Positions 975 to 20,796 of a stretch of DNA of 24,420 nt are shown here, one piece after another. Made by a program: the position numbers and the translations under genes. Each line of letters starts with the position of its first letter. Positions within the stretch are counted from its first letter, which is position 1. Under the pieces are notes generated by a model. The model did no database searches, had not been told where the DNA came from, and worked only from the letters and a program-made list of their open reading frames with translations. The stretch covers positions 1 to 24,420 of the IMG/VR virus record IMGVR_UViG_3300037722_000917; one strand, 5' to 3'. The DNA is from a virus (Duplodnaviria > Caudoviricetes).

Positions 975-1013
975 ACGTTCAGAGGCTACGGGCTGCATCC
1001 CACAGGACTCAAC

Positions 1014-1214
1014 ATGAAATTCCAGATGGCCGAGATGACTCCTGCCGAAGCTGCGAAGTTCGTTCGGCAGATCGCAGAGACCTCGCAGGACTGGACTGCT
1101 CTTGAAGCCGTCATCGAGAGCGTGATTCTCTCGGCGATGGACGCAGGGAGGAAGTACGGTCAGACCGAAGTCCCTGAACGGAAGGCGTCCCGGGATCTTC
1201 ACAGTGAGCTGTGA
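1014..1214 (+). CDS. Hypothetical protein (66 aa)
   Basis: AGGA Shine-Dalgarno (SD) before ATG; protein-like helical composition. Confidence 0.7.
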   Translation: MKFQMAEMTPAEAAKFVRQIAETSQDWTALEAVIESVILSAMDAGRKYGQTEVPERKASRDLHSEL

Positions 1215-1438: not shown

Positions 1439-1633
1439 GTGTCTGGACAGAGGAAGGCCGTCCACGCCCGTGAGCAGTATGATGACGTCGAGACGGCGGT
1501 TCGCGAACTCGGCACGTTGTGGGTTCTGGACCTCATCAACAAGACGTTGGGACACTCGAAGATCGCGCGCGAGAGGTTCGCGGAGAAGCGACGTCCAGCG
1601 GCTACGGGCCACAGGCCCCCGGCAAAGCCGTGA
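1439..1633 (+). CDS. Hypothetical protein (64 aa)
   Basis: GAGGAG SD, GTG 1439 directly after the previous stop; its stop overlaps the next GTG. Confidence 0.65.
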   Translation: MSGQRKAVHAREQYDDVETAVRELGTLWVLDLINKTLGHSKIARERFAEKRRPAATGHRPPAKP

Positions 1634-3197: not shown

Positions 3198-3232
3198 CGT
3201 CCCTGGATCTTCGACAGAGCCTGTGATAGAAT
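3198..3232 (+). promoter_or_regulatory. Repeated promoter motif, copy 2
   Basis: CGTCCCTGGATCTTC-N8-CTGTGATAGAAT; same length and flanks as 1186-1220. Confidence 0.7.
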
Positions 3233-3249: not shown

Positions 3250-3492
3250 ATGGCGCAGGTAGTAGAGATTAGTAGAGTAGTTCCACTAGGTGAAAGACCT
3301 AGCTTTTTCATCCGTAAGATGCGAGCGGTCCTGGAGCGTCAGGGTCAAATCGAGCCACTTCAGGTCTACGCCTTCGAGGACCATTTCCTTGTATGGCACG
3401 ACGACTCACACGGTAGCGACATCGTATTCGCTGCTAGAGAGCTTGGATGGTCAACGCTCTTGATTGTGGATACGAAGCGATACGAGCCATAG
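3250..3492 (+). CDS. Small ParB/Srx N-terminal-like protein (degenerate); may have an in-frame Cys-rich extension from ~3094
   Basis: QGQIEPLQV...FLVWHDDSHG...AARELGWSTLLI resembles the ParB-N GxxxPhxV...DGxxRxxAhxxLG pattern. Confidence 0.5.
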   Translation: MAQVVEISRVVPLGERPSFFIRKMRAVLERQGQIEPLQVYAFEDHFLVWHDDSHGSDIVFAARELGWSTLLIVDTKRYEP

Positions 3493-3547
3493 CACAAACC
3501 CCAAGTCGTAAGCAAGGGGAGACAACAGTCAACCAAGGAGGCAGCGC

Positions 3548-4069
3548 ATGATCGACGTCAACCCGCAGGAAGTGATGATGCTCACGGAGCAGATGCTCCG
3601 GAGCGGGTGGATCAAGGGATCCGAATACGGATCCGGCGTGATCGATGACGAAGGGCAGCGAAGCTACGACGCGCAGGGTGTCTGCGTGGCGGGAGCCCTT
3701 CGGGATTCCCTCACGATCGTGCTGCGTCCGCAGATCGAGCAGGTCTTCTCCACGATCCCGGAAGTGCAGGCGCTGCTGCCGTCCGTTCGCAAGCAGCTCG
3801 TGGGTCAGACCACGAAGCAATACGCGGACGCGCTGCACAGCATCTTCCGGCAGAGGATCGAGGCCGTGCTCGGCACCCACATCGAGTCGTGGAATGATGC
3901 GTCGGAACGCCGTAAGCAGGACGTGCTCGACGCGATGCGGGCTTCCCTCGAGCTGATCACGCAGGAGTGCCTGCAAGAGTGGGAGCAGGAATCCGCCGCC
4001 GACCGAACGGTCCGGATCGACGAGGCACGCGTCCTCGCCGGTGTCGGGGCTTCGAAGCGGCGTTCGTAG
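3548..4069 (+). CDS. DUF6197-like phage protein
   Basis: GWIKG...CVAGAL...IESWNDASERRKQDVL pattern; AAGGAGG SD. Confidence 0.65.
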   Translation: MIDVNPQEVMMLTEQMLRSGWIKGSEYGSGVIDDEGQRSYDAQGVCVAGALRDSLTIVLRPQIEQVFSTIPEVQALLPSVRKQLVGQTTKQYADALHSIFRQRIEAVLGTHIESWNDASERRKQDVLDAMRASLELITQECLQEWEQESAADRTVRIDEARVLAGVGASKRRS

Positions 4070-4090
4070 GGCCGCGCAGCAGCTTGCTTT

Positions 4091-4151
4091 TGCCAGGCCC
4101 CGCGGGCAACGGATGACGATCCGGGAGGGCTTCTGCAGCCTCCGCCTGGCA
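4091..4151 (+). ncRNA. tRNA-like mini-element (pseudo-tRNA)
   Basis: TGCCAGGC/GCCTGGCA closing stem; CGGAT/ATCCG hairpin; GGAGG/CCTCC T-like arm abutting the acceptor-like 3' strand. Confidence 0.45.
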
Positions 4152-4157
4152 CTGCGT

Positions 4158-4218
4158 CTTGGAGCCAATGCCGAAGCGTGAAACGCTCCACCTCACGAAC
4201 CAATGCGGCGGCTCCAAG
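4158..4218 (+). ncRNA. Structured non-coding element
   Basis: CTTGGAGCC/GGCTCCAAG perfect 9-bp stem, GCCG/CGGC continuation, inner AGCGT/ACGCT hairpin. Confidence 0.4.
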
Positions 4219-4224
4219 TCTTAC

Positions 4225-4297
4225 GGGGACGTAGCTCAGCTGGTAGAGCGGCAGGTCGAAGCCCTGCGCGCCGGAGGTTCGAGCCCTCCCGTCCCCA
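4225..4297 (+). tRNA. tRNA-Phe (anticodon GAA), atypical C33 and G37, CCA not encoded
   Basis: Acceptor GGGGACG/CGTCCCC + A73; D-arm GCTC-AGCTGGTA-GAGC; anticodon arm GCAGG-TCGAAGC-CCTGC; T-arm GGAGG-TTCGAGC-CCTCC. Confidence 0.92.
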
Positions 4298-4299
4298 CT

Positions 4300-4474
4300 T
4301 TGCAGCGGCTTCGTGTTGACCCATCGTCTCAACGGACCGTCCGGACAGCAGAGCCGGGTGGCGCTCAGAGGCAACGCCTCGTACCAGAGCTTCGCCCGAT
4401 CAGACTCGTGCACGGATTTCCGGAGCTGGCCAGCCGTGGATGGTTGAGATGGTGGTAGGCCGAAGCCGCTGCAA
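4300..4474 (+). ncRNA. 175-nt rod-like structured RNA, candidate 6S RNA homolog
   Basis: 14-bp perfect closing stem, 13-bp second stem with G-U pairs, central bubble, nested apical stems; GUGUUG/GGC internal loop and GUGGCGCUC motif. Confidence 0.6.
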
Positions 4475-4498
4475 CTTGTTCGTAGAACGGAGGATCCT

Positions 4499-4687
4499 GT
4501 GGACTGGGAAACGCGAAAGCAGCTCGAAGAGACGATCGTCGCCGGCTTTACAGACGCGGCGCGTCGGAAGGATGCGGGGCTACAAGCCCAGCTGCTTCTT
4601 GCGAAGATCCTCCTCGAACTGGAAGGGACGTTGAACGAGATGCTGATGATCCAGCAGAGGTTGGATGAGATCCGGCGGAACACATGA
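4499..4687 (+). CDS. Hypothetical helical protein (62 aa)
   Basis: GGAGG SD then GTG; ATGA overlap with the next gene. Confidence 0.7.
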   Translation: MDWETRKQLEETIVAGFTDAARRKDAGLQAQLLLAKILLELEGTLNEMLMIQQRLDEIRRNT

Positions 4688-5217
4688 CCACCACAGCGAA
4701 GCCCGAGCACATTCCCGGAACGTCCTACGGCTACCGCTGGCGCTGCACCTGCGGGAAGAAAATCTCCTCCCTCACGCGAAGCACGAACGTCAACTGCCCG
4801 TGTGGAAACATCTGGTCGAAGAACGACTCGCAGATTGTACTTCGCACATCCCGTCAGGAATCCTCCGTTTCACGGCGCAGCACGATTCCCGCAAGATCGT
4901 CTGTGACGGCCGGGGAGCCTCCGTCGGTTCATCCGACGGACCCCGGCTCCACAGCGAAGGGGGTGGGGGATTCCGGAGTCTCTCACCCCCGCTCTTCTGC
5001 TCCACGGCCGGTCCGAGTCGGGACCCTAGTCCCACCTCCCGACGGATGGGACGCCGACCCGAAGTCCTGGCACAGCCACTGCGCCGGATGCAAATCCGGC
5101 TTCCACCAACGCGCCCGCACCGAAGACGGCCTCTGGCGCTGCCAATGGTGCTGGCAGCTCTTCGAGCCTCCGCAGCGTGCCGTCCCTGGAAATCCTTTCT
5201 CTGATCCAGGAGAATAA
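4684..5217 (+). CDS. Hypothetical zinc-ribbon protein
   Basis: CTCG, CPCG, CAGC and CQWC pairs separated by a low-complexity S/P linker. Confidence 0.6.
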   Translation: MTTTAKPEHIPGTSYGYRWRCTCGKKISSLTRSTNVNCPCGNIWSKNDSQIVLRTSRQESSVSRRSTIPARSSVTAGEPPSVHPTDPGSTAKGVGDSGVSHPRSSAPRPVRVGTLVPPPDGWDADPKSWHSHCAGCKSGFHQRARTEDGLWRCQWCWQLFEPPQRAVPGNPFSDPGE

Positions 5218-5224
5218 TCCTATC

Positions 5225-5677
5225 ATGCACTGCATCATCATCGCCGCGCTCGTGTCATGCACAGGGAGTCTCCCTCCACTTAGTCCGAGCGAAGCCGCCG
5301 CTCTGCTGACGCACCCGTTCATCGCAGCGGCTTCGGTCTATGCCGAAGCCCCTCCGCGAGGTTGGCCAAATCCCACGTGGAAGCATCCGAAGCAGCCCGT
5401 AGCCTCTGAACGGTCTCCGTGGGGCGATCCACGCATCACGCTGCCGCGGCGGCGCCTCGACGGGACCCTCCTCTCCGATCCACCGACCTGGTCCTATGGA
5501 GTTCCGACGTATGGATATGCTATCCCGACGCATTACACAGTGGCACTGGAAGTACGTCACCGAAGCGACGCTCGTGAAGACTCTCGAGGATCTCAGCCTA
5601 CAGGGGTACGAAATACTGTCCGTCCAACGCACCCGCCGGTGGCTGCAGGCGTGCTATCTCGTCGTGTTCTCAGGTAG
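5225..5677 (+). CDS. Hypothetical protein, possible signal/lipoprotein leader; 3' end overlaps another ORF
   Basis: AGGAG SD, hydrophobic MHCIIIAALVSC start, Pro-rich. Confidence 0.45.
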   Translation: MHCIIIAALVSCTGSLPPLSPSEAAALLTHPFIAAASVYAEAPPRGWPNPTWKHPKQPVASERSPWGDPRITLPRRRLDGTLLSDPPTWSYGVPTYGYAIPTHYTVALEVRHRSDAREDSRGSQPTGVRNTVRPTHPPVAAGVLSRRVLR

Positions 5678-6583: not shown

Positions 6584-6612
6584 TTGAAATCCACCTCGTG
6601 CTCAGTTATAAT
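6584..6612 (+). promoter_or_regulatory. Near-consensus sigma70 promoter
   Basis: TTGAAA (6584-6589), 17 bp spacer, TATAAT (6607-6612), intergenic. Confidence 0.8.
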
Positions 6613-7102: not shown

Positions 7103-7789
7103 ATGTCCAAGCGAGGTGCGGTAGTCCTTCTCTCGGGAGGGCTGGACTCCTCCACACTCCTGCATCAGGTCATCTACGAGGACTTCGCTCCACACGTCCT
7201 CATCGTGAATTATGGACAACGCCACACCCGTGAGATTCGGGCAGCGTACGAAGTCGCGAGGGCCGTCAGCGATCGTGCCGCGGTTGAGATCATCCAGGTG
7301 AACCTCGCCGACGCGATGATCCCGATCTTCGGCCTCGCCGCGAGCTCTCAAGTCGGGGCGAAGCAGGACGTGCCTCACGGCCACTACGCCGCGGAGAACA
7401 TGAAGACGACGATCGTCCCGAACCGCAACATGCTGCTACTGGCACTCGCTGGTTGCCACGCCGTCGCGATCGGGGTCGACACCGTCGCGTACGCAGCACA
7501 TGCCGGAGACCACGCGATCTATCCGGATTGCCGTCCCGTCTTCGTCGCTGACATGAACGCGGCGCTGAGCTCGGCGACGGACGGAGCGATCCGGCTCCAC
7601 GCACCCTTCCTCACGATCACGAAGACTGACATCGTCAATCGAGGTAAGCAACTGGGGGTTCCCTTCGGGTTGACCTACTCATGTTACGAAGGTCGGGAGA
7701 TCCACTGCGGGCTCTGTGGGACGTGCGTCGAACGTAAGGAAGCGTTTCGGGACTCCGGAGTCCCTGACCCCACGGTCTACGCTGCATGA
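7103..7789 (+). CDS. queC: 7-cyano-7-deazaguanine synthase QueC
   Basis: SGGLDS PP-loop, YGQRH, VPNRN, YPDCR, TYSCY..G...HCGLCGTCVER zinc site. Confidence 0.96.
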   Translation: MSKRGAVVLLSGGLDSSTLLHQVIYEDFAPHVLIVNYGQRHTREIRAAYEVARAVSDRAAVEIIQVNLADAMIPIFGLAASSQVGAKQDVPHGHYAAENMKTTIVPNRNMLLLALAGCHAVAIGVDTVAYAAHAGDHAIYPDCRPVFVADMNAALSSATDGAIRLHAPFLTITKTDIVNRGKQLGVPFGLTYSCYEGREIHCGLCGTCVERKEAFRDSGVPDPTVYAA

Positions 7790-12234: not shown

Positions 12235-12247
12235 GGCACTATCCACC

Positions 12248-12434
12248 AACCACTGACTCGCCCCAGTGGTTAGCGAGGTCCTGAGTCCTTTCCCGGTTTC
12301 AGCTCAGGAAACCTCGTACCAGGAAACCGGGATGTTCCATCGTTGAAAGACCCGCTTAGTCCAGGTGGAAGGGACACCACCCCGACACATGGGAGCATAC
12401 CAACCGCTCCAGCGGGTCTTTGAACGATTGAACA
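12248..12434 (+). ncRNA. Highly structured intergenic RNA with predicted pseudoknot; candidate cis-regulatory element
   Basis: 8-bp hairpin; 12-bp stem whose loop TCCCGGTTTC pairs with downstream GAAACCGGGA; 22-bp interrupted stem enclosing two hairpins and ending beside the AGGAGG SD. Confidence 0.6.
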
Positions 12435-12448
12435 CAGGAGGACAAGTC

Positions 12449-12799: not shown

Positions 12800-13173
12800 G
12801 CCGGGCCTGGATCGGAGTCGACCTCGACGGGACGCTCGCCGAGTACACTACGTGGCACGGAGTAGAACACATCGGTGCTCCAATCCCTGCGATGGTCACT
12901 CGCGTGAAGCGTTGGCTGGCTGAAGGTAAGGAAGTCCGGATCTTCACCGCTCGCGTCTCAGGTCGTCGCGGCAACGCCGACACCCCACAGACGGAGATCG
13001 AGGAGTCGACCCGGATCATCCAGGACTGGTGTGAAGCGCACATCGGCGTGCGCCTGACCGTCACGGCAACGAAGGACTTCGGGATGACCGTCCTCTACGA
13101 CGACCGTTGCATCTGCGTGGAGAAGAACACGGGCCGACTCCTGACGCCTCAATACGCACTGGAGAACCTATGA
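12796..13173 (+). CDS. HAD-superfamily phosphatase (capless)
   Basis: DLDGTL motif I, FTAR motif II, K motif III, YDDR motif IV. Confidence 0.88.
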   Translation: MSRAWIGVDLDGTLAEYTTWHGVEHIGAPIPAMVTRVKRWLAEGKEVRIFTARVSGRRGNADTPQTEIEESTRIIQDWCEAHIGVRLTVTATKDFGMTVLYDDRCICVEKNTGRLLTPQYALENL

Positions 13174-13595
13174 GCATGCTCACTGCGACGCACACGGTCT
13201 CTCTCGGGCACCGGCTCCCGTCGTATGACGGTGTCTGCTCCAGTCCACACGGACACAACGCTCGGTTCTCCATTGACGTGTGGACGGAGTCCTTCTACGA
13301 CTTCAAAACGCTGGCGAACGTCCTCCGGGACATTCTGGCCGACTTCGATCATGCGATGATCCTCCACGCAGACGATCCGTTCCTCGTCTACCTCGCGAAG
13401 CAGGGCTTCCGATACGTTGCTATGAACGTGGAGCCCACGACCGAAGCGATGACGCAGCTCGTCTTCAACGCGGCGGAGCTGTTCGTGAACGATCTGCCAG
13501 ACCGTCGTGTTTCGAAGGTTACGATGTTCGAGACGGACCGATACTCTGCCTCTATCGGCACGAGCAATTCTCTCGTGTGGCGGGTCACCCCATGA
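13170..13595 (+). CDS. queD: 6-carboxy-5,6,7,8-tetrahydropterin synthase QueD
   Basis: GHRL...CSSPHGHN, DFK, FDH, PTTE, ET motifs. Confidence 0.92.
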   Translation: MSMLTATHTVSLGHRLPSYDGVCSSPHGHNARFSIDVWTESFYDFKTLANVLRDILADFDHAMILHADDPFLVYLAKQGFRYVAMNVEPTTEAMTQLVFNAAELFVNDLPDRRVSKVTMFETDRYSASIGTSNSLVWRVTP

Positions 13596-15241: not shown

Positions 15242-15280
15242 GACGGGTGTGGTAGTCCGTAGCCGCTGAACGGAGGAGTG

Positions 15281-15562: not shown

Positions 15563-15834
15563 GTACCGCTCCAACGACCCTCTCCGTGAAGCGACGCTTC
15601 GAGCCGATCGGTCACAGTGAGTGGGAGAGGGAACCCTTCGACGTTCTCGTCTGGCATTATGACGGGGAGTCCTACTTGACTCATCCCGTGCAGTGTCCAG
15701 ACGGATACTTCCCCGGCCTCCTCCGAACGTTCATGAACGGGGAACCCTGTGACCTGAGAACATTTGACGAAGGACTCGGCCGAGAGAAGCTCGGGATCAC
15801 CCGTGCTGACATCCTGAAGGAGGTCCTCCGATGA
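15559..15834 (+). CDS. Hypothetical protein (91 aa)
   Basis: ATGA overlaps on both sides. Confidence 0.65.
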   Translation: MSTAPTTLSVKRRFEPIGHSEWEREPFDVLVWHYDGESYLTHPVQCPDGYFPGLLRTFMNGEPCDLRTFDEGLGREKLGITRADILKEVLR

Positions 15835-16469
15835 TCTATCCCATCGCCGAGAAGTTCAAGAGCCCTCAGGGTGAGGGACTCTACACCGGTGTGCCCATGG
15901 CCTTCATCCGGTTCATCGGATGTTCTGTCGGGCAGAAGATCTGCACGGCCTGTGACACAGACTTCGATCAGGTCTACGAGAAGCTTGGCGGAGGACGCTT
16001 CTCCGTCGAAGACCTCGCAGAGTGGGCAGGGGATTACATCCACGTCTGCCTGACTGGAGGTGAGCCTCTTGACCGGCAACTCCTGCCGTTGATCAACCAT
16101 CTACAAGATCGGCACGGGAAGATCATCCACGTGGAAACCTCTGGAACCATCTTCCCAAGCTGGCTGCGGGAGGTCTACCGAAAGCATTTCTGGCTCTGCG
16201 TCTCTCCGAAGCCGGGCTACCTGCAAGACATGATCTCGACCGCCGACGAGATCAAGGTGATTCTCGGAGGACTCGGTGCCGGCCCAGGCTGGCCCTCTCT
16301 CGAAGACGCCGTTCGGTGGGCGGATGAAGGGAAGCTGGTCTACCTCCAACCTCGGAACGAGAAGTTCCTGATCGATCGATCCGCTCTGCAGGAAGTCATC
16401 GAGACGGCGCATCAGCATCCACGTCTCCGGATCTCCGTGCAAATGCACAAGTTCATGGAAGTGCGATGA
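15831..16469 (+). CDS. queE: 7-carboxy-7-deazaguanine synthase QueE (radical SAM)
   Basis: EKFKSPQGEG, FIRFIGC-x6-C-x2-CDT, TGGEP, ETSG, VSPK, SVQMHK. Confidence 0.95.
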   Translation: MIYPIAEKFKSPQGEGLYTGVPMAFIRFIGCSVGQKICTACDTDFDQVYEKLGGGRFSVEDLAEWAGDYIHVCLTGGEPLDRQLLPLINHLQDRHGKIIHVETSGTIFPSWLREVYRKHFWLCVSPKPGYLQDMISTADEIKVILGGLGAGPGWPSLEDAVRWADEGKLVYLQPRNEKFLIDRSALQEVIETAHQHPRLRISVQMHKFMEVR

Positions 16470-16895: not shown

Positions 16896-17392
16896 GCTTC
16901 TCGACGGTTCTCTTTGACCAGTATCAGATCGCGGACCGCGTCCGAGAGCTGTCCTATGAACTTGACAAAGTCCCGATCTCACACGTCGTCGTGGTGATGA
17001 ACGGAGCTCTGCACTTCGCGTCACAGCTCCTGCTGCAGCTCCGTCGAGACGTCTCCGTCAGCCTAATCCAGGTGCGCACATACGTTGGGAAGTCCCCAGT
17101 CAATCCTCCGAAGGCCATTGACCAGATTGGTCTCCGAGACCTTTCCGGACACGACGTTCTCGTGATCGAGGACATTGTCGATACCGGGGCAACCATCAAG
17201 TACTTGCGAAAGCAACTGCTCCACAGCGGAGCCCGCACCGTCCGAACCATCTCCTTGCTCCAACGGCGTGGAAGCGCAGAGCAAGCGAACCACATCGGAT
17301 TCCTCCTCGAAGACAACGCCTTTGTAGTCGGCTATGGCCTCGACCTCGACGGTAAATACCGTCACTACCCTTTCATTGGAGTGCTCTCATGA
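16892..17392 (+). CDS. hpt: Hypoxanthine/guanine phosphoribosyltransferase family protein
   Basis: VLVIEDIVDTGAT PRPP-binding loop; FVVGYGLD..GKYR C-terminal motif. Confidence 0.92.
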   Translation: MSFSTVLFDQYQIADRVRELSYELDKVPISHVVVVMNGALHFASQLLLQLRRDVSVSLIQVRTYVGKSPVNPPKAIDQIGLRDLSGHDVLVIEDIVDTGATIKYLRKQLLHSGARTVRTISLLQRRGSAEQANHIGFLLEDNAFVVGYGLDLDGKYRHYPFIGVLS

Positions 17393-17931
17393 ACCAGAAG
17401 ATGATGGAGAAGGGAGTGGAACTCCTACTCCGAGGAATGGGAGTGGATCCCTCCGACCCGAACTTCGAGGGGACGCCGGGCCGCGTCGCCCGGATGTTCA
17501 AAGAGATGTTGACACCGGAGGCCAACAACTGGTCCACCTTCCCAGCGAAGGCCAGCGATCTGATTATCCTCCGCGGTCACAAGGTCGTCGCAGTGTGTCC
17601 ACACCATCTGCAGCCCGTCGAAATCCGATGTGCCATCGGCTACATCCCACACAAGGAGACGCTCGGTCTCTCCAAGCTGGCAAGGGTCGTCGAAGAGCAA
17701 CTGACCATCCCGATCATGCAGGAGGACCTTGCTGAGGCTGTCGCCACTGCCCTTCAGCAGAAGATCGATCCGAAGGGCGTCGGGGTCGTCCTCGCCGGAG
17801 TGCACGGCTGCATGCGCTACCGCGGGATCCGGTCCTCCGGTGACGTCATCACCTCCGTGATGAAGGGAGTCCTCCTTCTCAACCCGGCCGCCCGATCCGA
17901 ATTCCTTCAACTCATCGGAAGTCCTGCGTAG
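17389..17931 (+). CDS. folE: GTP cyclohydrolase I FolE
   Basis: TPGRVA, CPHHL, GLSKLAR, MQE, HGCM..RG. Confidence 0.96.
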   Translation: MNQKMMEKGVELLLRGMGVDPSDPNFEGTPGRVARMFKEMLTPEANNWSTFPAKASDLIILRGHKVVAVCPHHLQPVEIRCAIGYIPHKETLGLSKLARVVEEQLTIPIMQEDLAEAVATALQQKIDPKGVGVVLAGVHGCMRYRGIRSSGDVITSVMKGVLLLNPAARSEFLQLIGSPA

Positions 17932-17939
17932 GAGGACCT

Positions 17940-18233
17940 ATGTCGATTCTCGCGGAGATTCGAGCAGTCACTGCTTCGCTGAACGTCGCTGAGGACGTCC
18001 GCAGGCAGCTGTCTAGGACGTTCGATCCGAGGGACCTCCTTTTCGAAGCGCTCAAGGCGGCTGCCCTCTCGTGGAAGGAGGATCCTTTCATTCAGAAACT
18101 TCTGCAGAAGGAGTATCCTCCGAACGTCATCCTGGTCCCAAAGCACGTGTCCCCAGACCACTACGTGATTCAAGGTGCTTGCTTCGACATGATCATCTAC
18201 GACGAAGTCGTTGAGCCGTCGAATGAAGATTGA
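17940..18233 (+). CDS. Hypothetical protein (97 aa)
   Basis: AGGAGG SD; fills the folE-polymerase gap. Confidence 0.65.
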   Translation: MSILAEIRAVTASLNVAEDVRRQLSRTFDPRDLLFEALKAAALSWKEDPFIQKLLQKEYPPNVILVPKHVSPDHYVIQGACFDMIIYDEVVEPSNED

Positions 18234-20796
18234 TCTCAAGCTCGTCGAACCCACCGACGACAATCCATTCGGTAAACCCGAGCACTGTCGGAACTGCACC
18301 CTCTTCTCGGAGCCAGGTCCCGTCTTCGGGGACGGGAATCGAGCCGCCCGAATCTTCTACCTCGGCGAAGGCCCCGGGGCGGACGAAGTCGACTGGTCTC
18401 CTTCCTACGACCCCGAACGCCACGGCCCTCCTCGTGCAAACATGCGGATCGAACTTCCGAAGTGGCGGGACGATGGGAAACCTCCCAGCACGACCGTATC
18501 GTTTCGCCAGCACCGGATGAAACCGTTCGTAGGCGGGTCAGGACGAATCCGGAACGCCCTGCTCAAGCATGCGAGCCTGGACAAGGATGTCCACCTCTTC
18601 ACCTCGAACTGTGTGAAGTGTAGGCCTCCAGCGAATCGCCTTCCCACTCAACACGAAGTGGCCTGCTGCGCTCCCTTCCTCATTCAGGAACTGGAAGATG
18701 TCAACCCGAACCTCATCATCGCGGCGGGTGAGCTCGCGCTCTCAACCGTCACCGGAAAGTCGAAGATCGGGCTCTGGCGGGGAGTCCCCACCCTCGGCGC
18801 CTTCGGGAAGAAGGTCTTCCCCACCTGGCACCCAGCCAACGTCATGCGGGTTCAGTGGAACTGGCCCTTCGCCGTCCACGACCTGGCGCGCGCGAAAGTT
18901 GAGAGCACGTTCCCGGAGATCCGTCGGATACCGGTCAACATTGACCGACGTGCAAGTCTTGCAGATACTCGAAGCACTCTGCTTGCAGATATCCGAGCAC
19001 GGGGAGCCTGCACGTTCGACTTCGAGACGACTGGTCTCACCCCGGACCGTGATTCGATTCGCATGTGCGGATTTGTCGGGCGGCCAGATCAGGCTAACGT
19101 GTACGATTGGACCTCTGGTGCTCAGCAGCTCTTTCAGGAGATATTTGACGATCCTACAGTCGAAATCTGCGGTCAGAACATCCTCTACTTCGACCTCCCC
19201 TTCGCGGAGGAGAAAGGGCATCGGGTAAGGTGGGAGGAACGCATCTTCGATACGATGGTGGCGTTCCACCTGGCCAACAGCTCTTATGGTCAGACCTCCA
19301 TCGGTGCGCAGAACGCAGGGAACTACCAAGGCGCTCGCGGCACGGAGAAGGACCTCTCCTTCATCGCTTCGAATCATACAGACATCGAGTATTGGAAGTC
19401 GAAGGAACAGTACAAGAACGACCTCTACGGCGTCTGTGGCGTAGACGTCATTGCAACGGATCGATCCGCGTACCACCCTGTTCACGGGCTGAAAGCCGAA
19501 CTGGCCTCATACGACATGCTCGATCTGTACTACAAGCATGTGCTGCCGGTTCACCTCCCCCTCCGCAGGATGACGCAACGCGGAGTGAAGATTGACGAAG
19601 ACCGGGCAGCCCGTTGGGCCATGATGCTGGAGTCGAATGCAAACCAGCTCGAGTCCACGCTGAAGGAGGGTCTCGGGTACGACTTCAACATGAACAGCCC
19701 GCAGCAGTTGATGGATCTGCTCTACAACAAGCTGGGCTTACCCGTCCAATACATTCACGACAAGAAGCGAGGGAAACGGCCCACAGCAAACGCCGAAGCG
19801 ATTGAGATCCTCGCGAACCTGGCTCCAGAGAACAAGATCCTCGGGACGATCGTTGACATCCGTCACCTGCGGAAGATGAATTCGACATACGTCCAGCCGG
19901 GCCTCGTGACCGGATACCTCCACCCTCGCTTCGGCGTGAGCAAAGCTGCCAACGGCCGATTCAACGGTCAGGACCCGAACGCACAGAACGTGCCGGAGAT
20001 CATGCGGGATATCTGGATCCCGGATTCACCCGAGCACGTGCTGCTCTCCGCTGACAGCTCGCAGATTGAATGGCGTGTCGCCATGGTCCTGTCCGGAGAT
20101 CCGGTCGGCCTCGAACTCCTCGCGAGTGGAGTGGACAACCACCGTGCAGTCGCAGCGGAGACCCTTGGGAAACGGATCGAAGACATTTCCGATGCCGAAC
20201 GCCACGCGTCGAAGTTCATCGTCTACGGACTCGGCTACGGACGAGGGGCTGCCAGCATCGCGGCAGGCCACAACCTCGACCTCTCGTTCGTGGACCAGTT
20301 CATCAGCAGGTTCTTTGCCCGGTTCAAGGTCTTCCACGCGTGGCGCGAAGCGTTGCCTGAACAAGTCCGACGTGATCACTTCCTGGCGAATCCCTTCAAA
20401 CGCCGTAGGTGGTGGTACACCCGAGAGATTACGGAAATCTACAACTTCCCTGCCTCCAGCACCGCTGCTGACATGATGTACGAGGAGATCATCCAACTCG
20501 AACGGCAGTTGCCGAAGGACGCGACTCTGCGCTTGACGGTTCACGACGAAGTCGTTCTCAACGTCCCGAAGGACATCGTCCGGGAAACCATCAACTGCGT
20601 ACGAAGCATCATGCAGGCGAAATGGGAGCTGATCGTCAATGCGAGTGCTCGCCCGGAGAACGTGCGTAGGCACTATCCCGACGGTTGGTTCTGTCCAGCA
20701 GACGTCCATGTCGGCACGAACTGGAAGATGTGCAAGTCGAAAGACCCACAGGACAAGGTTGATCGAGCGAAGCTCGAGAAGGAGCTGGGACTCTAA
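18223..20796 (+). CDS. polA: Family A DNA polymerase with N-terminal family-4 uracil-DNA glycosylase domain and 3'-5' exonuclease
   Basis: UDG: CRNC, GEGPG, PFVG, NCVKCRPP, HPA; Exo: DFETTG, QNILYFD; Pol: ADSSQIEWR, KFIVYGLGYG, VHDE. Confidence 0.95.
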   Translation: MKIDLKLVEPTDDNPFGKPEHCRNCTLFSEPGPVFGDGNRAARIFYLGEGPGADEVDWSPSYDPERHGPPRANMRIELPKWRDDGKPPSTTVSFRQHRMKPFVGGSGRIRNALLKHASLDKDVHLFTSNCVKCRPPANRLPTQHEVACCAPFLIQELEDVNPNLIIAAGELALSTVTGKSKIGLWRGVPTLGAFGKKVFPTWHPANVMRVQWNWPFAVHDLARAKVESTFPEIRRIPVNIDRRASLADTRSTLLADIRARGACTFDFETTGLTPDRDSIRMCGFVGRPDQANVYDWTSGAQQLFQEIFDDPTVEICGQNILYFDLPFAEEKGHRVRWEERIFDTMVAFHLANSSYGQTSIGAQNAGNYQGARGTEKDLSFIASNHTDIEYWKSKEQYKNDLYGVCGVDVIATDRSAYHPVHGLKAELASYDMLDLYYKHVLPVHLPLRRMTQRGVKIDEDRAARWAMMLESNANQLESTLKEGLGYDFNMNSPQQLMDLLYNKLGLPVQYIHDKKRGKRPTANAEAIEILANLAPENKILGTIVDIRHLRKMNSTYVQPGLVTGYLHPRFGVSKAANGRFNGQDPNAQNVPEIMRDIWIPDSPEHVLLSADSSQIEWRVAMVLSGDPVGLELLASGVDNHRAVAAETLGKRIEDISDAERHASKFIVYGLGYGRGAASIAAGHNLDLSFVDQFISRFFARFKVFHAWREALPEQVRRDHFLANPFKRRRWWYTREITEIYNFPASSTAADMMYEEIIQLERQLPKDATLRLTVHDEVVLNVPKDIVRETINCVRSIMQAKWELIVNASARPENVRRHYPDGWFCPADVHVGTNWKMCKSKDPQDKVDRAKLEKELGL

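Follow-up and report, generated by a model that had tools for sequence, protein, structure and literature searches.

We find, immediately behind a phage tRNA gene, a 175-nt rod that is a genuine phage-borne structured RNA, as predicted from one sequence, and we put at roughly 45% the probability that, once released from a tRNA precursor, it binds the sigma70 holoenzyme of the host as a strongly diverged decoy of the 6S type. The first-pass annotation had proposed a phage-encoded 6S-like RNA at this position, and the proposal holds in part: in its favour are the length and the rod-like shape, a centre that could switch folds, and three paired 6S motifs, and against it are the lack of a match to any 6S model and the absence of the CACYU motif. 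The rod lies in a linear virus record of 24,420 bases (completeness about 46%), called the window here, meaning the whole stretch of DNA that was analysed. It covers the replication half of a phage, with genes for QueC, PTPS, GTP cyclohydrolase, Thy1, a PD-(D/E)XK nuclease, AAA_24 and a family A DNA polymerase. The phage was found in two runs of sediment metagenomes, one of which may be the window's own source, and no close isolate of it was found. None of the sequencing runs listed as containing it is an RNA run. The locus and the parts of the rod are as follows.

3224..3232, + strand: extended -10 promoter-like site (TGnTAGAAT), the nearest candidate start upstream of the tRNA and rod
3286-3302: terminator-like hairpin, between the TGnTAGAAT site and the tRNA
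3548..4069, + strand: DUF6197 gene (Pfam PF19698, E 6e-9), upstream anchor of the variable region
4070..4224, + strand: non-coding leader with a predicted multi-branch fold and a hairpin (z -1.45; 16/200 shuffles, not significant)
4225..4297, + strand: tRNA-Phe(GAA) (ARAGORN; RF00005, 60.5 bits)
4300..4474, + strand: 175-nt rod RNA, 6S-like
4300..4333, + strand: closing arm, 5' half (14 bp, then GUU/GGC, then 13 bp including two G-U pairs), pairing with 4443-4474
4335..4354, + strand: 5' central strand, with the GACC-containing helix 4335-4343/4437-4445 and then about 11 weakly paired purine-rich bases
4355..4398, + strand: apical arm of 7+4+5 bp (16 bp), GGG/CCC at its base, containing GUGGCGCUC (pair probabilities 0.94-0.97)
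4399..4442, + strand: long 3' central strand, with an alternative hairpin 4411-4415/4434-4438
4499..4687, + strand: 62-aa orphan ORF with its own ribosome-binding site outside the rod

The rod begins, as had been noted, just after the tRNA and on the same strand, with 2 nt between the tRNA end at 4297 and its own start at 4300. Folding reproduced the outer helices that had been drawn by eye, namely the perfect 14-bp closing stem 4300-4313/4461-4474 (pair probability 0.97), the GUU/GGC pairing near the rod ends at 4315-4317/4458-4460 (0.93) and the 13-bp stem 4321-4333/4443-4455 with its two G-U pairs (0.85). The suggested preference for the + strand was also borne out: the minimum free energy there is -88.1 kcal/mol with a z of -4.49, a stability reached by 0 of 200 shuffles, as compared to a z of -2.41 (4 of 200 shuffles) on the - strand, and the G-U pairs of the inner helix work on the + strand only. 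After GC correction, the rod ranks second in stability among 970 windows. Its shape alone is not rare, as 9 of 520 candidate rods from the window and 28 related loci have more end-to-end pairs. The CACGG/CCGUG hairpin drawn on the 3' side did not fare as well, with a pair probability of only 0.26, and its rival is a fold in which an extension carries the closing stem on for another 9 bp (4335-4343/4437-4445; pair probability 0.56); constrained folds set the two states 0.5 kcal/mol apart, at -88.7 for the extension and -88.2 kcal/mol for the hairpin. The annotation's own caveat that the central bubble might partly close was well founded, as two near-equal folds compete there. The 5' centre is GC-rich, its best unpaired 10-mer scoring 0.53, near the bottom of the 0.51-0.97 seen in 17 reference 6S RNAs (E. 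coli ssrS plus 16 of 17 Patescibacteria RF00013 matches, the partial L225 being left out, and all of them picked by RF00013 or by annotation). Blocking 14 bases of the template strand during folding gave the 3' hairpin every time (4/4 trials).

The 14-bp inverted repeat at the two ends of the rod is perfect and has CT on either flank, and it might instead mark a DNA-level element behind the tRNA, a miniature transposon remnant or a recombination scar with no RNA function, and in keeping with this chance rods do arise in these GC-rich phages and the rod is missing from all five relatives that carry the upstream DUF6197 gene. We regard such an origin as improbable, given that the inner helices need G-U pairs, which work on one strand only, that a 2-bp flank repeat (CT) is weak, and that no second copy was found in the window or in any collection searched. 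Miniature inverted-repeat transposable elements are recognized by several copies and a target-site duplication; the rod has one copy and the CT flanks. Likewise, no attC pattern was found, and no tyrosine integrase in five records. In retrons, the gene for a reverse transcriptase follows right after the terminal inverted repeats of the non-coding RNA; here the repeats are present, but the next ORF is the 62-aa orphan and no reverse transcriptase family was found in 35 ORFs, which does not fit a retron. The similarity search with the 62-aa ORF returned only itself, with no protein family match, and the reading frames that cross the rod (99 aa on the + strand, 301 aa on the - strand) belong to no PHROG family. 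A contig from a second study is identical to the window over 4204-4354, spanning the tRNA-rod junction, which is therefore no assembly artefact. The tRNA-rod cassette is a sporadic insert, because the tRNA search and R1 (a model of the rod) detect neither part in any of the five distinct relatives with a DUF6197 gene (L006, L007, L167, L229, L234; the following DNA was read in four) and because two near-complete relatives are also without tRNA and rod.

The rod also resembles 6S RNA in three paired motifs. In the RF00013 consensus GUUCG faces CGGC near the ends, UGAnCC faces GGuUCA beside the bubble, and GGG faces CCC at the base of the arm. On the + strand of the rod GUU/GGC, GACC/GGUU and GGG/CCC are all paired and in consensus order (3/3, versus 0/3 on the - strand). 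When the definitions GU(U/A)/GGC, GAnCC/GGU and GGG/CCC were scored by one script, the three motifs occurred in 4, 8 and 14 of 517 chance rods respectively, with 26 rods having one motif and none having two, although this three-motif test was devised after the sequence had been seen and thus overstates the odds. In the 17 reference 6S RNAs they occurred in 4, 2 and 12; four of the 17 have two motifs and none has all three. The apical-arm word GUGGCGCUC, which had been compared to a 6S motif, does occur, and its position agrees with the register of E. coli 6S, but it is no hallmark of the family, because GUGGCG is found at that place in only 1 of the 17 references (E. coli). The 9-nt word shared with E. 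coli 6S falls in register in 5 of 500 shuffles, or in 5 of 60 if a match to any of the 17 references counts.

The rod is nonetheless not a 6S RNA by family membership and is not assigned to RF00013. The covariance-model check proposed in the first-pass annotation gave no match at E<=10 on 461 or 181 bases with the model filters on (gathering cut-off 46.4 bits), and a 6S search of the phage genome gave no candidate to score. A divergent-6S model built from 15 sequences (R2; AT-rich, with only 20 pairs) recovered 3 of 3 held-out 6S loci and, with its filters off, matched the window weakly at 29 places, none of them on the rod. Similarly, R1 matched 0 of 18 6S loci. CACYU, at the junction of arm and 3' bubble, is present in 17 of 17 reference 6S RNAs and absent from both strands of the rod. 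Local alignment to the 17 references gave a mean z of 0.39 for the + strand and -0.40 for the - strand, in a test that barely separates true 6S relatives, as E. coli 6S against the other 16 references reaches only 0.68. A rod on the - strand, prompted by a CCACC word, was ruled out on its z of -2.41, its 0/3 paired 6S motifs and its alignment z of -0.40. The weak Rfam matches of the rod to msiK, sul1 and c-di-GMP-I (E 1.5-7) were taken as chance, and a better match to another family, which had been named as grounds for abandoning the 6S proposal, was not found in Rfam. RF00013 itself is weak in divergent lineages: at E<=0.1 it scored 17 of 101 Patescibacteria genomes, 4 above the cut-off, and its cut-off was passed in 4 of 14 control genomes. 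Therefore, the RF00013 miss is not decisive. The same weakness would allow the rod to be an ordinary host 6S gene, recently captured and overlooked by the family model, perhaps from an acidobacterial host. We think this very unlikely, as no other contig in the two samples matches the rod at 80% likeness, none of the 101 Patescibacteria genomes contains a match, and CACYU is missing from the rod.

Compared with 6S RNA/SsrS (RF00013; E. coli ssrS, B. subtilis 6S-1 and 6S-2), the rod shares the length, at 175 nt within the 142-197 nt of the 17 references, an end-to-end closing arm with internal loops, and an apical arm; in the single-sequence prediction it has the 6S layout of a 150-200 nt rod with a closing arm from both ends and an arm at the apex. 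It also shares GUU/GGC, GACC/GGUU and GGG/CCC in register, and the predicted switch between downstream helix and 3' hairpin. It differs in having no model score, no CACYU and a GC-rich, partly paired 5' centre. Moreover, its 3' centre spans 38-44 nt versus 13 in E. coli and reads AUCAGA where the 6S counterpart is ACCUUG, ACCUAG or ACCUGG, its arm spans 44 nt versus 72, and it is phage-borne, behind a tRNA, without a promoter of its own. The divergent short 6S RNAs of Patescibacteria (n=16), often below the Rfam cut-off, are like the rod in their short apical arm, with GGG/CCC at its base in 12 of 16 and, in L215, GCUC/GAGC adjoining GGG/CCC; unlike the rod, all of them keep CACYU and their 5' bubbles are mostly A/U-rich, and a model made from them does not score the rod. 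Polymerase-binding RNAs outside RF00013, as the rod would be, are represented by Ms1 and CoRP of Actinobacteria, and CoRP lies between tRNA genes (PMC11077062). These RNAs measure about 300 and 516 nt and are mainly core-enzyme binders, whereas the rod has 175 nt and no Rfam match; Ms1 in addition has extra end hairpins (PMC9130861). By length and by the missing Rfam match, the rod is no member of Ms1. A 6S-like fold with synteny does not guarantee function, for example in Streptomyces Str11, which showed no polymerase binding (PMC9130861). The '6S RNA' of lambda is a homonym only; it is transcribed from the late operon and its sequence is not similar to that of bacterial 6S (10.1101/2024.10.31.621285).

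How the rod might be made follows from its surroundings. Neither a promoter nor a terminator was found in 3400-5200, and so none between tRNA and rod, from which we infer that the two are made as one transcript. The nearest upstream candidate start, the TGnTAGAAT site, has a twin at 1212-1220, although 10 of 100 shuffles also reach this total of 2 matches. The tRNA-Phe(GAA) ends at A4297 with no encoded CCA, and C stands at its position 33 in place of the usual U. Its YCGAAR loop is common to 43 viral loci with a tRNA-like start (L310-L352), and the C33/YCGAAR loop may be linked to the evasion of anticodon nucleases. Maturation of the CCA-less 3' end of the tRNA by host enzymes would free the rod, whose 5' end would thereby be set by tRNA-Phe 3' processing.

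As a decoy, the rod is predicted to close with an arm of about 30-39 bp and to carry the 16-bp arm at its apex, with loose pairing in the centre between them, and the holoenzyme would dock with the rod centre in its active site, as on an open promoter. The result would be that host and early phage sigma70 promoters are damped later in infection. If the rod works like 6S, the 5' central strand 4335..4354 is the predicted template for a product RNA, and folding predicts that a product copied from about 4345-4348 would open the helix 4335-4343/4437-4445 in favour of the 3' hairpin, as happens when 6S is released. Product-RNA-driven refolding of 6S is described in PMC8876501, and the folding of the rod with a blocked template resembles it. 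The long structured 3' strand may instead slow the release of polymerase. Truncated short-arm 6S RNAs still cycle, and a second 3' hairpin impairs release (same source), and B. subtilis 6S-2 yields little product RNA (PMC3753640). The setting of the phage bears on the decoy in both directions. It has sigma70-type promoters (an 11/12 match at 6584-6612 and the two extended -10 sites) and no Sigma70_r2 sigma factor was found in five records, two of them near complete, which we count in favour of a decoy; the phage's own sigma70 promoters would be hit too, which we count against it. We tentatively extend the decoy reading to an account in which tRNA processing frees a 6S-type RNA that the phage itself encodes and that ties up the sigma70 RNA polymerase of the host, with a 3' strand perhaps rebuilt against escape, in a family that gains host-type RNAs (tRNA, tmRNA, Y RNA, ribozymes) singly.

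The search of phage databases that had been suggested returned no homolog of the rod. Viral pattern scans found none among at least 120 of about 2300 estimated loci or among 28, 42 and 43 loci, and none was present in related phages linked by protein similarity (16 + 2 loci, one genome contig and the best 80 of 110 metagenome contigs), where blastn, nhmmer and R1 gave a best E of 1.1, with R1. Phage and plasmid records returned only tRNA matches or short chance matches. The relatives themselves carry other RNAs: L249 has a tmRNA gene (2011-2315, tag AESFEMPAAA), L006 a pistol ribozyme (5340-5426), L163 four twister-P5 ribozymes spaced 300-600 bases apart (390-1734, - strand), and G010 a tandem pair of YrlA-like (Y RNA) genes (L354:1376-1475 and 1497-1630) at E 7e-9 and 1e-6, below the Rfam cut-off. 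A functional RNA is therefore more likely than a scar in this RNA-collecting phage family, which leaves unsaid what the function is. It is quite possible, and the main rival reading, that the rod serves a different end. It may be a stalk for RNA processing or stability, it may lure away a host protein that binds RNA or acts in defence, or it may bind core polymerase like Ms1. As a stalk it would be an RNase III-type double-stranded substrate that parts the tRNA from downstream mRNA or frees the inner 110 nt. Near-perfect outer helices around a weakly defined centre, the failure of every 6S model test, the processing RNAs that relatives place in the same region (the pistol of L006, the four twister-P5 of L163) and a second, stronger structured element in the window (12240-12440) all suit such a role, as do the phage tRNA-adjacent RNAs with a role in 3' processing, the theta (HDV-like) ribozymes described in PMC10879173, which also sit right behind a phage tRNA. 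These have a nested double pseudoknot and cleave within 5 nt of the tRNA 3' end, and neither Rfam nor our own loose pattern search found an HDV-like fold starting at the tRNA end. The rod matches no Rfam ribozyme family and no Ms1 model, and loose HDV-like, hammerhead, hairpin and twister patterns are absent from its + strand, the loose pistol pattern occurring only upstream of the tRNA. Another job also leaves the three in-register 6S motifs unexplained.

Two further elements of the window share words with the rod. The intergenic structure at 12240-12440 (+ strand), ahead of a dATP/dGTP diphosphohydrolase-like gene, has a 24-bp arm topped by two hairpins, is more stable than the rod (z -6.5) and has no Rfam match. 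Its words at 12302 and the arm of the rod have GCUCAG and CCUCGUACCAG in common; we do not take this sharing as significant, since 299 of 300 shuffles find an equally good alignment at some place in the window (7 of 300 if only that region is considered), and a model of the shared words found no third copy. The apical arm also contains one 13/16 copy of a 16-bp asymmetric repeat that has six copies at <=3 mismatches in the window (0.28 expected), of which three shortly precede probable gene starts. The repeat is possibly an operator, and no conservation of it was found in relatives. These copies and further genes of the window are listed here.

976-991 (+), 1165-1180 (-), 1592-1607 (+), 4362-4377 (+, in the apical arm), 5397-5412 (-), 15257-15272 (-): copies of the 16-bp repeat
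7103-7789: QueC
13167-13595: PTPS (QueD-like)
15831-16469: radical SAM (QueE-like, weak match)
17389-17931: GTP cyclohydrolase
18211-20796: family A DNA polymerase fused to an N-terminal UDG-like domain

QueC, PTPS, the radical SAM protein and GTP cyclohydrolase form what we take to be a likely 7-deazaguanine DNA-modification pathway. Where the window has the tRNA cassette, L006 has two genes for PEP-CTERM-type surface proteins (3628-4305 and 4621-5337), and in 2 of the 3 look-alike clusters listed for one of them Acidobacteriota are commonest (phylum known, 7 members each), a weak hint that the phage host is perhaps a member of this phylum. L167, a 60%-GC contig of the same phage family, sits in a Saccharibacteria bin, where it is probably misbinned.

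No phage-encoded polymerase-binding 6S RNA was found in the literature searched, which lay outside most subscription journals and does not establish absence from print. Similarly, 6S RNA goes unmentioned in the main text and the three of six listed supplements searched of a survey of 10,006 viral structured RNAs (PMC10690425). If the rod binds no polymerase, it is one structured RNA in one phage population, of modest weight until homologs appear. Phages are known to take over host transcription by means of proteins. If the decoy reading is true, luring the holoenzyme away with an RNA would add a new route of takeover, the RNA counterpart of phage protein inhibitors of polymerase, and 6S-type function would outlive the loss of CACYU and of any Rfam score, so that such phage RNAs would go unannotated.
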